Source: a virus (Duplodnaviria > Heunggongvirae > Uroviricota > Caudoviricetes). Taken from it: a DNA stretch of 4,711 nucleotides. Below are positions 78 to 4,533 of this stretch, in pieces. A program made the position numbers and the translations under genes. The notes under the pieces are model-generated. The model saw only the letters and a program-made list of their open reading frames with translations. It was not told the origin of the DNA and did no database searches. The stretch is taken from the IMG/VR virus record IMGVR_UViG_2547132270_000004, positions 1 to 4,711 of that record. One strand, 5' to 3'. How positions within the stretch are numbered: the stretch's first letter is position 1; each line of letters begins with the position of its first letter.

Positions 78-413
78 ATTGATAACAGAGGGCGTTGTAG
101 CGGGGTTGTCACTTAAGCGTATGGTCAACCTGACAACCCGGTGTCCTCAACGGGGAAGGAATAACCCCGCCATACTTACCGCCGCGCCATTTCGCGGAGT
201 GCCACAACCGGAAGCGCACGGTCGAATTAAATTTAACGACACCGTACAGAGAGACCAATTTCGCCGTGTGCTTTCGCGTTATGCCCTGGCTTTTCAGGGA
301 TATATCCTTTCAGTAAACTGTCAGTACCGGATTCTTATCCGTGTCCGGCGCACGACCACACGTGACAGCGTGTTGGTCTCCATTTTTAACCCAGAACCTC
401 AATGGAGGATAAA

Positions 414-623
414 ATGCCAAACAAAAAAAGAAATCCGCTTATTGAAAAACAGATTGAATGCCTTGTAAATCAACTCAGGCAATCAGGGTTATTAAAAACT
501 CATTCAGAGTTGAGGCTCACAGAATCAGCATTCGACGATAAATTAAATAATGTCCTTTATAATGGCATTATTGATTTTAATCGTTCTGTTGGTCGCCGCG
601 GCCCTGCTGGTGTTTCCTTATAA
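414..623 (+). CDS. Hypothetical small protein (69 aa), convergent with the minus-strand operon
   Basis: ATG at 414 has a perfect GGAGG (404-408) 5 nt upstream; the ORF-track start at 402 has no RBS. Open frame to TAA 621-623. No recognisable domain. The C-terminal third overlaps an alternative-frame hydrophobic ORF, so the true coding frame is uncertain. Confidence 0.4.
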   Translation: MPNKKRNPLIEKQIECLVNQLRQSGLLKTHSELRLTESAFDDKLNNVLYNGIIDFNRSVGRRGPAGVSL

Positions 624-1262
624 TTACCAGTCAATCCAGAGCGGACCGTGTTCAGCGTAAATATAACTGTACACATCCAGATTATATTTGTGGTCTGTTA
701 AGAACAGGCCGCAAATACATGCCGAAGCTTCAAGGGCAGCGGCTCTGTTACTGAATAACCATGTAGCAACATTCCAGCGTTTTTCTGCATCCCAGTCTTT
801 CTCAAGGCCTGATACCATGAAGAAACCGTTAGTGTTGCCATCAAATAATTCTGTTTCCAGATTTTTAAGCAATGCCTGATGGACTCTTGCCAGGTATTCC
901 GCCGGAATTTTGCCACGAATTCTGATGAGATTGTCATAAACAAACATGTTCCCCGCATATGGCGATTTTTCTTTCTTGTTTTTTAAACCAGCATCATGAG
1001 CAAACTGATCAATTTCTTCTTCCGTTGGTTTCGTATTGATGTTTTGCGCTGTCGTTTCTGCAATTTTATTTGCCACACTCTCTGAGTCGTGTTTATTTAT
1101 AGACGCACAGAAATACAATCCGGTAAACGCATCGCGCACATTACGAGCTATATTATCAGTGTCTTTTTTCGTTACCGATTCCAATGCAAGTTCGTTCAGA
1201 CGATGACGAAGTGTATGTGCTGCAATCTCCTGGATTGAAGTAGGTAAATCTTTAAATTCCAT
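624..1262 (-). CDS. Hypothetical protein (212 aa), unrecognised cargo gene in the repressor-controlled operon
   Basis: Long minus-strand ORF (216 codons in the track). Preferred start is the internal ATG at 1260-1262, preceded by GAGG with a 6-nt spacer (minus strand TGATGAGGTTGACGATGG). The alternative ATG at 1272-1274 overlaps the upstream stop (TGATG). Predicted soluble and acidic, with no motif I recognise. Confidence 0.75.
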   Translation of the reverse strand: MEFKDLPTSIQEIAAHTLRHRLNELALESVTKKDTDNIARNVRDAFTGLYFCASINKHDSESVANKIAETTAQNINTKPTEEEIDQFAHDAGLKNKKEKSPYAGNMFVYDNLIRIRGKIPAEYLARVHQALLKNLETELFDGNTNGFFMVSGLEKDWDAEKRWNVATWLFSNRAAALEASACICGLFLTDHKYNLDVYSYIYAEHGPLWIDW

Positions 1263-1273
1263 CGTCAACCTCA

Positions 1274-1426
1274 TCAGTCAGAGTTTCTTGCTAACCAGCG
1301 ATGCGCGCCAGCTTCGGTTTTAAACGTTTTACTTTTGGTATACGTCATCGCGGTGAACGTGCCGTCCTGGTTGGGAAACACGTCGTACACCAGAGATTCG
1401 TTGTTGCCAAGATCGATAGTATCCAT
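1274..1426 (-). CDS. ydfA: Small protein (50 aa), YdfA-like (DUF1391-type) directly downstream of the dicA-like repressor
   Basis: The track ORF 1274..1519 has no RBS at its first ATG. The internal ATG at 1424-1426 is preceded by GGGGAAATGAGG (SD GAGG, 5-nt spacer). Size (50 aa) and position match ydfA (51 aa) of Qin and ydaF of Rac. The family assignment rests on synteny and size, not on verified sequence identity. Confidence 0.6.
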   Translation of the reverse strand: MDTIDLGNNESLVYDVFPNQDGTFTAMTYTKSKTFKTEAGAHRWLARNSD

Positions 1427-1616: not shown

Positions 1617-2024
1617 TTATTGATGTTTGTTACGTTTGCGAGCTTCTAGTAGCTCGGTGAATAGGCGATTAAAATTCTCAACGCGGGCACGGAGTTCGCT
1701 GATTTGTGCTTGCTGCTCTGATTTTGGAAGTGCGCGATACAATCGCAACATCTCCAACTCATCTTCCGATAAGTCTAAGGCGCTGTTGAGTGCAACTGGT
1801 GGATCTGGTGTTTTATCCTCGTCACCAAACAGTATCCAAGTTGGTGAACATTGCAATACCTCAGCCAGGCGATGCAAATTTTGCCCACGCGGGGCTGTAT
1901 GGTCGCTTTCCCATAGTGAAATTGATGAGCCAGATACGCCAGCAGCTTTGCTTAAATCGTTTTGACTTAAACCAACCTGTTTGCGTCTTTCTCTAATTCG
2001 TTGACCTAAAGTTTTCTCGTTCAT
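1617..2024 (-). CDS. dicA: DicA-like HTH (XRE/Cro-C1 family) prophage repressor, 135 aa
   Basis: N-terminal HTH (QRIRERRKQVGLSQNDLSKAAGVSGSSISLWES) and the motif LQCSPTWILFGDEDK, which I associate with DicA/RacR-family repressors. Start chosen at the ATG at 2022-2024 (MNEKTLGQ...), giving 135 aa as in K-12 DicA. The track start at 2075 would add 17 residues and leave no room for the divergent promoter. Confidence 0.85.
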   Translation of the reverse strand: MNEKTLGQRIRERRKQVGLSQNDLSKAAGVSGSSISLWESDHTAPRGQNLHRLAEVLQCSPTWILFGDEDKTPDPPVALNSALDLSEDELEMLRLYRALPKSEQQAQISELRARVENFNRLFTELLEARKRNKHQ

Positions 2025-2045: not shown

Positions 2046-2088
2046 TTGACTTGAGATTCCTTGAGTGATTACCATTGAGAAAACTCAA
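2046..2088 (+). promoter_or_regulatory. Putative promoter of the cro-like gene with an overlapping inverted-repeat operator
   Basis: -35 TTGACT (2046-2051), 18-nt spacer, -10 TACCAT (2070-2075). The 14-bp inverted repeat TTGAG-AAAA-CTCAA (2075-2088) overlaps the -10 and the predicted +1. Extra TTGAG half-sites occur at 2051-2055 and 2061-2065. SD GGAGGGG (2093-2099) precedes the ATG at 2102. Confidence 0.45.
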
Positions 2089-2101: not shown

Positions 2102-2329
2102 ATGTTTAAATCAGACGTAATTAATTTTTATGGGACGAAAGCCAAAGTAGCGAAAGCTGCTGGTGTTGATCCATCTGCTGTTTCTCAATGGGGGGCACTG
2201 GTTCCTGAAGGTCGCGCGATGCGCCTGCAAGAGGCATCCGGCGGGGAACTTCAGTACGACCCCAAAGTTTATGACGAATATCGTAAGGCAAAGCGGGCGG
2301 GGCGGCTGAACAATGAAAATCACCCCTGA
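2102..2329 (+). CDS. dicC: Cro-like HTH regulator (DicC/YdaS family), 75 aa
   Basis: Divergent from the repressor gene. ATG at 2102 follows a strong SD GGAGGGG; the track start at 2075 is a TTG lying inside the operator. HTH-like segment GTKAKVAKAAGVDPSAVSQW. Size matches DicC (76 aa). Confidence 0.8.
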   Translation: MFKSDVINFYGTKAKVAKAAGVDPSAVSQWGALVPEGRAMRLQEASGGELQYDPKVYDEYRKAKRAGRLNNENHP

Positions 2330-2834
2330 ACAGGTTTGTGAGGCTCTGGATGCCTGGGTATGCCGACCAGGAATGACACAGGAGCAGGCGACGATATTAA
2401 TCACGGAAGCATTCTGGGCTCTGAAAGAACGCCCGAACATCGATGTTCAACGCGTCACGTTTGATGATGGCGCGGTTGATCAACGGGCGCTGGGCGTCAA
2501 CCGGGTGAAGATATTCGAACGCTGGAAAGCTATTGATACCAGGGATAAGCGGGAAAAATTCACGGCGCTGATTCCGGCAATTATGGAGGCTATCCGGATA
2601 AGTGATTTCAGGTTGTATCGTGAAATTACTGACGGAAAAAGCATTACATACATGATCGCCGGGTTAAACAAAGAATATGGCGACGTGGTGGAGTCAGGTC
2701 TGCTTTTTGCAGATCCGGCTGTTGTGGATCGTGAAACCGACGAACTTATAGAAAAAGCCATTGCTTTCAAGCGTGCGTATCGTCAGCAATATCAACAAAA
2801 AGCCGGATGGAATTATGAGTCTTCTGTTTGCTGA
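2313..2834 (+). CDS. cII-position regulatory protein (173 aa), possibly YdaT-like CII functional equivalent
   Basis: ORF overlaps the cro-like gene by 17 nt (2313-2329) and sits where lambdoid phages carry cII. It shows no resemblance to lambda CII itself. The YdaT-family assignment is by synteny and vague recollection only. Confidence 0.75.
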   Translation: MKITPEQVCEALDAWVCRPGMTQEQATILITEAFWALKERPNIDVQRVTFDDGAVDQRALGVNRVKIFERWKAIDTRDKREKFTALIPAIMEAIRISDFRLYREITDGKSITYMIAGLNKEYGDVVESGLLFADPAVVDRETDELIEKAIAFKRAYRQQYQQKAGWNYESSVC

Positions 2835-3780
2835 ACGCCCACTGGTTATTAACACGCAGCTGGCGATGAAAATTGGCCTGAATGAAGCCATTGTACTGCA
2901 GCAGCTGCATTACTGGTTGAGAGATACTAATTCCGGCATGGAATGTAACGGGGTTCGCTGGATTTATAACACAACAGAACAATGGCTGGAACAGTTCCCG
3001 TTCTGGTCAGAGTCAACGTTAAAACGCGCATTTGCAAGTCTGAAAACGCTGGGGCTTTTGCGTTGCGAAAAGCTCAACAAATCAAAGCGTGACATGACTA
3101 ATTTTTACACGATTAATTACGAGAGTGAGCTTTTAGATGGTGGCAAAGTGAGCGAATCCATCAGGTCAAAATGCGCCGCTCCATCAGGTCAAAATGACAC
3201 GATGGAAGAGGTCAAAATGGCACGCTCCATTGGTTCAAAACGACCCAATGTCATCGGGTCAAAATGGCCTGATGATCTTACAGAGAATACAACAGAGAAT
3301 ACAACAGAGAATAAAAACACTTCTCGTCCGGAAGCTTCGCAACCGGACCCGCAGACGGCTGAACAGGATTTTTTAATCCGACACCCTGATGCGGTTGTGT
3401 TCAGTGCGAAAAAACGCCAGTGGGGAAGTCAGGAAGATTTGGCGTGCGCACAGTGGATCTGGGGACGAATCGTGAGTCTTTACGAGCAGGCGGCCAGCGA
3501 TGATGGCGAGATCACGAGACCGAAAGAACCCAACTGGACAGCATGGGCCAATGACGTGCGCACAATGCGGATGCTGGATGGCAGAACTCACAGACAAATT
3601 TGCGAAATGTTTGGGCGGGTACAGCGGGATCCATTCTGGGTAAAAAACATCATGAGTCCGTCAAAGCTCCGCGAAAAATGGGACGAACTGGTCATCCGCC
3701 TGGGGCGTTCATCTGTACAGCGTTGTGTGAATCATATTTCTGAACCGGACACCGAAATTCCGCCGGGGTTCAGGGGGTAA
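2815..3780 (+). CDS. Phage replication initiator / replisome organizer (lambda O-like), 321 aa, with internal iterons
   Basis: ATG at 2815 is chosen over the track's TTG at 2761; it overlaps the upstream gene's stop by 20 nt. The N-terminal domain has the look of a replisome-organizer DNA-binding domain. The central low-complexity linker is encoded by the iteron array and tandem repeats. It lies immediately upstream of the DnaC-like loader. Confidence 0.85.
   Translation: MSLLFAERPLVINTQLAMKIGLNEAIVLQQLHYWLRDTNSGMECNGVRWIYNTTEQWLEQFPFWSESTLKRAFASLKTLGLLRCEKLNKSKRDMTNFYTINYESELLDGGKVSESIRSKCAAPSGQNDTMEEVKMARSIGSKRPNVIGSKWPDDLTENTTENTTENKNTSRPEASQPDPQTAEQDFLIRHPDAVVFSAKKRQWGSQEDLACAQWIWGRIVSLYEQAASDDGEITRPKEPNWTAWANDVRTMRMLDGRTHRQICEMFGRVQRDPFWVKNIMSPSKLREKWDELVIRLGRSSVQRCVNHISEPDTEIPPGFRG
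3157..3266. repeat. Iteron array (five direct repeats, about 23-bp phasing): putative phage origin of replication inside the initiator gene
   Basis: Core GGTCAAAATG occurs at 3164-3173, 3187-3196, 3210-3219 and 3257-3266, with a variant GGTTCAAAACG at 3232-3242. Extended consensus is about TCCATCAGGTCAAAATG. The arrangement is analogous to ori-lambda within gene O. Confidence 0.6.
3280..3315. repeat. 12-bp tandem repeat ACAGAGAATACA, 2.9 copies, A-rich, encoding TENTTENTTEN
   Basis: Two perfect copies (3280-3291, 3292-3303) and an 11/12 third copy (3304-3315), immediately downstream of the iterons. Confidence 0.7.
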
Positions 3781-3786
3781 CGAACC

Positions 3787-4533
3787 ATGAAAAATATTGC
3801 GACAGGCGGCGTTCTGGAACGTATCCGCAGACTGACCCCGCCACATGTAACCGCCCCATTCAGAACGGTAGCGGAGTGGCGCGAGTGGCAGCTTGCTGAA
3901 GGCCAGAAGCGTAGCGAGGAGATCAACCGCCTGAATCGCCAGTTGCGGGTGGAAAAAATTCTGAATCGCTCAGGCATCCAGCCGTTGCACCGTAAATGCT
4001 CGTTTGCGAATTACCATGTACAGAACGACGGCCAGCGATACGCGTTAAGTCAGGCGAAATCCATCGCTGATGAACTGATGGCCGGATGCACAAATTTCGC
4101 GTTCAGCGGAAAACCTGGTACCGGAAAAAACCATCTGGCGGCGGCTATCGGAAATCGCCTGCTGAAAGACGGCCAGACAGTGATAGTGGTTACTGTGGCT
4201 GATGTTATGAGTGCCCTGCACGCCAGCTATGACGACGGGCAGTCAGGCGAAAAATTTTTGCGGGAACTGTGCGAAGTGGATCTGCTGGTTCTTGATGAAA
4301 TTGGCATTCAGCGTGAGACGAAAAACGAGCAGGTGGTGCTGCATCAGATTGTTGATCGCCGGACAGCATCGATGCGCAGTATGGGGATGCTGACAAACCT
4401 GAACTATGAGGCCATGAAAACGTTGCTCGGCGAGAGGATTATGGATCGCATGACCATGAACGGTGGGCGCTGGGTGACTTTTAACTGGGAAAGCTGGCGC
4501 CAGAATGTCGTCCAGCCAGGAATCACGAAGTAA
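3787..4533 (+). CDS. dnaC: DnaC-family AAA+ replicative helicase loader (prophage DnaC paralog), 248 aa
   Basis: Walker [18 protein letters not shown] and Walker [10 protein letters not shown]. Collinear similarity to E. coli DnaC along the whole length (MKN..., [33 protein letters not shown]). RBS GGGGG at 3772-3776. Confidence 0.95.

Follow-up and report, generated by a model that had tools for sequence, protein, structure and literature searches.

A YdaT-family protein at the cII position of a lambdoid prophage and a candidate operator over its own start codon

The 173-aa protein encoded at the cII position of the prophage locus described here is, by sequence comparison, a diverged but recognisable member of the YdaT family, and we consider it likely, at a probability of roughly 80%, that this HTH transcription factor fills the role of lambda CII by driving leftward transcription of the repressor gene from a binding box. 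In lambdoid prophages of the Rac-like, CP-933-like and DicA/DicC-immunity kinds, YdaT-family proteins stand in for CII. The stretch of DNA analysed (the window, 4,711 nt) corresponds to a lambdoid prophage's immunity and replication region, in which the following features were mapped.

1617-2024, minus strand: DicA-type repressor gene (CI analogue), 135 aa; NF007257, 2.7e-71
2046-2075, plus strand: P_R-like promoter TTGACT-18-TACCAT, from a promoter scan
2074-2089: palindrome ATTGAGAAAACTCAAT, overlapping the P_R-like promoter (whole element 2046-2089); predicted DicA/DicC operator
2102-2329, plus strand: cro-like gene of the DicC subfamily, 75 aa; NF007282 over 75/75 positions, 1.9e-49; Pfam P22_Cro
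2313-2834, plus strand: ydaT-like (cII-position) gene, 173 aa, ATG start; from the program-made ORF list
2815-3780, plus strand: O-like replication initiator gene, 321 aa; phrog_391, 2.2e-95
3787-4533, plus strand: DnaC/YdaV-like helicase loader gene; family profile matches

As listed, the repressor ORF begins at ATG 2075 and encodes 152 aa, of which residues 18-152 align to positions 1-135 of the 135 in NF007257. Because the alignment begins at ORF residue 18, the repressor start is likely ATG 2024, in agreement with the RefSeq annotation of a 408-nt repressor gene in L001, a 93%-identical prophage integrated beside ompW. The longer ORF, from 2075, would cover the P_R-like promoter and the operator. 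The palindrome ATTGAGAAAACTCAAT is a probable DicA/DicC operator. More widely, the palindromic motif TGAGAAAACTCA(AT) has three copies in the window, at 1504-1518, 1543-1556 and 2074-2089. Two of them lie on either side of TTGACC-17-TAAATT (1532 to 1504), which resembles a leftward promoter and stands upstream of the DUF1391/ydfA-like gene, and the third (2074-2089) overlaps the -10 element and the start of the rightward promoter-like site at 2046-2075; all three are probably DicA/DicC operators, O_L-like and O_R-like.

A full-length DicF sRNA gene occupies 25-76 of the window on the minus strand; Rfam RF00039 matches it over all 52 model positions with 76.4 bits, its gathering score being 48. 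As in the Qin prophage, the DicF gene stands downstream of the leftward ydfA-like operon, and in the related locus L001 dicB comes next. Between the DUF1391 gene and DicF, the operon carries the gene for a 216-aa protein (624-1274, minus strand), which matches phrog_2151 (9e-145), is without a Pfam or NCBIfam match and is annotated 'hypothetical protein' in L001. A convergent 73-aa ORF (402-623, plus strand), also a 'hypothetical protein' in L001, ends 1 nt before the stop codon of the 216-aa gene. The O-like initiator gene contains five iteron-like direct repeats of ~23 nt (3159-3274; core GGTCAAAATG), and behind them, at 3280-3315, come three tandem copies of the 12-nt unit ACAGAGAATACA, which code for TENT repeats; by analogy with lambda O, the repeats within this gene are probably the replication origin. 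Terminator-like matches in the window were at chance level only.

The ydaT-like ORF had been described as lying between the cro-like and initiator genes with overlaps of 17 nt (2313-2329) and 20 nt (2815-2834), and these coordinates were confirmed; the annotations of L001 in RefSeq and of phage PhiR42_1 (L024) agree in the starts and in both overlaps. In homologues with as little as 44% identity, M1, I3, E6, L12, W15 and P19 are conserved, which supports the start at 2313. The two overlaps suggest that translation of the gene is coupled to that of its neighbours. Other members of its clade usually have a cro/ydaT overlap of 4 nt (ATGA) and a gap before the gene that follows ydaT. Within the coding sequence, in the codons of the predicted alpha2-alpha3 loop, lies a perfect 14-bp palindrome, GAACATCGATGTTC (2435-2448); it was set aside as an operator, as chance alone would yield ~0.3 such palindromes in the window and the palindrome is imperfect in the 93%-identical L001 and absent from distant loci.

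A scan of genome contigs gave 9 loci only, so the diversity of the locus was taken instead from contigs encoding homologues. In all ten of the further loci, whose homologues are at 37-48% identity, the order of the repressor gene (minus strand) and the cro-like, YdaT-like and replication genes (plus strand) is kept. The cro-like gene in these loci is of the YdaS type or the P22_Cro type, and the replication genes vary. The fixed order, despite the varying cro and replication families, ties the ydaT-like gene to the immunity switch and not to one replication module. The same loci bear on the proposal that the protein is an accessory of the replication module, for instance a partner of the O-like initiator. 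The proposal is suggested by the 20 nt that the two genes share in the window and likewise in L001 and PhiR42_1. In other loci, however, unrelated replication genes (HTH_36, DnaT-like or unannotated) come after the YdaT-like gene, sometimes past a gap or an opposite-strand ORF, whereas the YdaT-like gene always stands directly after the cro-like gene. Moreover, the overlap is made by a C-terminal tail that is predicted to be disordered and is found in the E. coli subclade only. A replication accessory is therefore a most improbable reading of the protein, and the gene order favours a regulator of the immunity switch.

The original prediction had raised membership in the YdaT family as something for an HMM search to settle, and the search supports it: the protein scored 26.2 bits against Pfam PF06254 (YdaT_toxin), above the gathering cut-off of 21, with residues 59-131 aligned to profile positions 3-71 of 92. 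Residues 1-155 matched PHROG 163, 'CII-like transcriptional activator', at 3e-41, and in NCBIfam no model matched the protein. Proteins 92-96% identical to it carry the RefSeq name 'toxin YdaT family protein', and phage records (HannyBb, PhiR42_1) name close relatives 'cII' or 'CII-like transcriptional activator'. In E. coli, the close relatives make up clusters exceeding 1000 sequences, and isolated phages that carry the gene include mEp460, HannyBb and PhiR42_1. Gene copies of 93-94% identity also occur on contigs binned as Collinsella, Bacillota and Veillonella metagenome-assembled genomes (L010, L011 and L012), most likely E. coli prophage contigs that were mis-binned.

Pairwise similarity to Rac YdaT is weak (24% identity in a MAFFT alignment; BLASTP aligns 29 residues), and phmmer against 8bt1 gave an E value of 0.028. 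For a test of membership without circularity, we built a profile from 35 sequences of the 160-173 aa clade and excluded Rac-type sequences from it. The top PDB matches of this long-clade profile were 8bt1 (1.2e-4) and 3c4r (3.9e-4), and hhalign aligned it with a Rac-type profile at 97.1% probability (E 5.9e-11; residues 1-106 vs 1-90). When 1.84 billion representative proteins were searched with the long-clade profile, 81 clusters were found, and the distant full-length matches that we scanned were Pfam YdaT members in every case (10/10, 39-97 bits). A PDB match obtained with another alignment (8e-9) was discarded as evidence because that alignment contains Rac-type sequences. The YdaT-family identity is already known, since RefSeq, PHROGs and several phage records annotate it so, and the finding is correct but ordinary. 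This existing database annotation is based on homology and position only, and in the literature searched we found no experimental study of any member of the 160-173 aa clade.

Structure prediction, which had also been proposed as a check, gave a confident AlphaFold2 model (pLDDT 85.6) that matches the YdaT structures 8bt1 and 3c4r. The model is of a monomer and was made without templates from a 41-sequence alignment that contained Rac-type sequences; an earlier AlphaFold model from an 11-sequence alignment reached a pLDDT of 51.6 and was discarded. In a Foldseek search of the PDB, 8bt1_C (probability 1.00, TM 0.66) and 3c4r_C (probability 1.00, TM 0.59) were followed by a next match with E>1, and a search of the viral BFVD library gave no meaningful match. 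The N-terminal part is predicted to form a five-helix HTH (POU-like) domain with helices at residues 5-16, 23-36, 57-73, 77-97 and 99-106, and the alpha2-alpha3 loop has a predicted length of 20 residues, a loop for which 9-23 residues are reported in the YdaT family.

The recognition helix (57-73) carries R70 and W71, and neither residue varies in three alignments (46, 41 and 10 sequences) that cover the Rac and CP-933P types. They correspond to R57 and W58 of Rac YdaT, in which the H56A/R57A substitution abolished DNA binding, and R70 corresponds to Arg60 of CP-933P YdaT, the sole fully conserved recognition-helix residue in the family. The C-terminal part is predicted to consist of two confident helices, 111-130 and 135-164, with an A-D-P turn between them and a disordered tail at 168-173. 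Residues 107-173 do not align to Rac or CP-933P YdaT, and the region is common to other Pfam YdaT members of 145-162 aa. In 8bt1 there is one long C-terminal helix that forms an antiparallel four-helix-bundle tetramer and is needed for DNA binding; the crystallised YdaTs look like a short form of the family.

The names used by Pfam and RefSeq would make the protein the true toxin of a DicC/YdaS-YdaT toxin-antitoxin pair, and the Rac study (PMC11879457) reports that expression of Rac YdaT causes filamentation and death. The same study, however, explains the toxicity by activation of host rcsA, and toxin-antitoxin function was tested for the family and not found, with CP-933P YdaT being non-toxic (PMC8630535, PMC5917428). 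The original prediction had described proteins at this position as toxic on overexpression; this holds for Rac YdaT (PMC11879457), but not for CP-933P YdaT (PMC8630535), and it is not a trait of the family. The predicted HTH DNA-binding fold and the placement of the gene in a cro / cII / O immunity-replication layout also speak against a toxin, which we regard as a very remote prospect. The name 'toxin' is historical and misleading, and context and fold indicate a regulator of the lysis-lysogeny decision.

Two predicted elements for such a regulator were found at the cro/ydaT junction.

2306-2323: candidate YdaT-box CTGAAC-AATGAA-AATCAC, 18 bp, spanning the ydaT-like start codon; predicted site
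2280-2285, minus strand: TACGAT, candidate -10 hexamer for a P_RE-like promoter that reads leftward and has no -35 element; distance to the box, 20 nt

The box at 2306-2323 is an imperfect inverted repeat with the core TGA-N10-TCA; its halves match at 3/6 positions, a poor symmetry, and the exact motif has a single occurrence in the window. It is in identical register to the footprinted high-affinity YdaT-box of Rac, ATGATT-CATGAA-AATCAA, which spans the ydaT start codon (PMC11879457). Across 11 non-redundant long-clade loci, TGAAC-N7-ATCA is invariant at the cro/ydaT junction, and TGAAC and ATCA are the sole runs of at least 4 fully invariant columns within 100 nt in the 11 aligned junctions. 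The motif stays fixed despite a 3-nt shift of the ATG, a residue 4 that is T, S or N, and differing flanks, and it is also kept where TGAAC falls in another reading frame of another cro family. The canonical operator TTGATT-N6-AATCAA was absent near the gene at up to 3 mismatches, and elsewhere in the window it had chance-level matches only. We predict that the 2306-2323 element is a binding site for a YdaT-family protein.

The transcript from the TACGAT hexamer would start near 2273, which would place the centre of the box near -41.5, and it would read dicC in the antisense and the repressor gene in the sense direction. Across the family, 16/17 sites have a TAnnnT hexamer on the leftward strand at 20-21 nt from the box, against a same-strand background of 1.2% per position, and the hexamers vary in sequence and codon context. 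A naive binomial test of this spacing gives P ~2e-25, a figure inflated by the relatedness of the sites; it also overstates independence because the box and the -10 element both lie within coding sequence, where coding constraint is possible. The conservation of the box and the -10 element could in part reflect shared ancestry and coding constraints. TAnnnT is present at 10/11 long-clade junctions, the exception being L020 with CAGAAT, and it is found as TATGAT at the Rac junction and in a CP-933P-like phage, as TATCAT in a Klebsiella phage and as TAAGCT in a Stenotrophomonas phage, where the box is intergenic.

The remaining two of the 16 TAnnnT sites belong to boxes upstream of xis. In L001 (2983-3000) and in PhiR42_1 (2697-2714), outside the window, a second box lies 58-66 nt upstream of the excisionase start; its leftward-strand sequence is CTGATT-yTTAAT-GTTCAA, the spacer is near-identical, and TATAGT or TATTCT then stands at 20-21 nt. 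L001 has 3 exact motifs against 0.20 expected, and 0/200 shuffles reach 3; the third exact motif, inside int (2457-2472), was taken as chance, with no TAnnnT at the right spacing. The site upstream of xis is a candidate analogue of P_I and would transcribe xis and int. The layout of box, spacer and TAnnnT suggests lambda-like P_RE and P_I promoters, and this layout and the possible xis-int site are, as far as the literature searched shows, new if modest predictions.

The same elements could be read in another way, with the protein acting mainly as a repressor or autoregulator: binding over its own RBS and start codon would block rightward transcription or the translation of the ydaT, O and loader genes, and the expression of the replication genes would be limited without the driving of any leftward promoter. 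The box does span the SD-ATG region, the CP-933P paper terms YdaT a 'repressor', and Rac YdaT also binds over the ydaS promoter. No consensus leftward promoter was detected either, in strict or relaxed sigma-70 scans of 1990-2480, but this null result is uninformative because the scan requires a -35 element and missed the repressor's own promoter. Simple occlusion, on the other hand, leaves the fixed position of TAnnnT at 20-21 nt on the leftward strand in 16/17 sites unexplained, the boxes upstream of xis and in the Stenotrophomonas phage do not overlap any ydaT start codon, and box-dependent leftward activation has been measured in Rac (29-fold) and CP-933P. We find a mainly repressing role unlikely, although occupancy of the start codon could also lower synthesis of the ydaT-like protein, and the roles of repressor and activator are compatible.

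Activation of the repressor gene, the reading that we prefer, would proceed in the following way. After infection or derepression, translation of the rightward P_R-like transcript would yield the ydaT-like protein immediately after the DicC-type Cro, and the protein would oligomerise via its C-terminal helices. It would occupy the 2306-2323 box, the imperfect 18-bp inverted repeat that covers the start codon of its gene, and, centred at ~-41.5, recruit RNA polymerase to the -35-less leftward promoter (TACGAT, 2285-2280). Transcription from there would cross dicC in antisense orientation and continue into the DicA-type repressor gene, so that Cro would be lowered and the repressor raised, as with lambda P_RE. 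The near-identical second box upstream of xis-int in closely related prophages would be the counterpart of P_I, at which the protein would switch on xis and int. In CP-933P and Rac, YdaT activates a leftward promoter towards the repressor (PMC8630535, PMC11879457), and in Rac the box-dependent activation of leftward transcription amounts to 29-fold (PMC11879457).

In Rac (E. coli K-12, L002, ~3652-3657), a good -10 hexamer, TATGAT, stands on the leftward strand, with a spacing of exactly 20 nt to the YdaT-box footprinted at the ydaT start. It lies inside the published reporter constructs, and the published study is silent on it. Against the preferred reading, published work puts the activated promoter at other positions: the Rac study attributed the box-dependent activation to PracR4, ~190 bp away (PMC11879457), and in CP-933P the start of the activated promoter was reported within O_M.

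A broader proposal is that all YdaT regulators are class II-type activators, with the box 20-21 nt from a -35-less -10 element at the cro/ydaT junction and, in this clade, also at xis-int; the box would then be centred near -41.5 or -42.5. We advance this generalisation tentatively, at slightly less than even odds. If it is true, the activation 'from a distance' of PracR4 in Rac may stem from an unrecognised proximal promoter with TATGAT, and the protein of the window would match CII fully in function, acting on two or more promoters with a half-site specificity of its own. For an unstudied and widespread clade, the analysis offers a concrete prediction of an operator, the position of a repressor-establishment promoter and a second site before xis-int. 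The spacing rule extends to Rac and CP-933P and provides an alternative reading of published reporter data.

Among known systems, the proteins of PHROG 163 and those named 'toxin YdaT family protein' in RefSeq show no difference of substance from the ydaT-like protein. CP-933P YdaT (8bt1; PMC9986795) and 3c4r are its sole confident structural matches and its best PDB sequence matches. The protein shares with them the POU-like HTH and the long alpha2-alpha3 loop, at ~26-30% identity over the structural alignment, and its R70 corresponds to Arg60. It differs in that 8bt1 has a single 29-residue C-terminal helix in a four-helix-bundle tetramer, whereas two helices with an A-D-P turn are predicted here, and in that the canonical YdaT operator, TTGATT-N6-AATCAA, is absent from the window.

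With Rac YdaT (b1358; PMC11879457), the ydaT-like protein shares the gene position in the order repressor / cro-like / ydaT / O-like / DnaC-like, a homologous N-terminal HTH domain (hhalign 97.1%) with the R-W pair of the recognition helix, and a candidate box in the same register over the ydaT start codon with TAnnnT 20 nt leftward. Rac YdaT has 140 aa, in contrast to the 173 aa here, where the alpha2-alpha3 loop is longer and an extra C-terminal helix is predicted. The half-sites are CTGAAC/AATCAC here and ATGATT/AATCAA in Rac, the partner is a DicC/P22_Cro-type cro here and YdaS in Rac, and the genes overlap here, whereas intergenic gaps separate them in Rac.

The absence of any resemblance to lambda CII, claimed in the original prediction, was upheld: BLASTP against the CII of NC_001416 gave no alignment at E<=100, and the protein has no Pfam CII match. 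YdaT and lambda CII have been argued to share the R-W pair of the recognition helix (PMC11879457), which is R70/W71 here. The target of lambda CII, which it contacts as an unusual dimer of dimers, is the direct repeat TTGC-N6-TTGC; the sites of YdaT proteins are inverted repeats instead. The predicted P_I analogue is placed upstream of xis, whereas P_I of lambda lies inside xis. What the ydaT-like protein shares with lambda CII is the position of its gene between cro and O and, as a prediction, its mode of action: from a site over the -35 region, it would switch on leftward promoters that read towards the repressor gene (P_RE) and that precede int (P_I).
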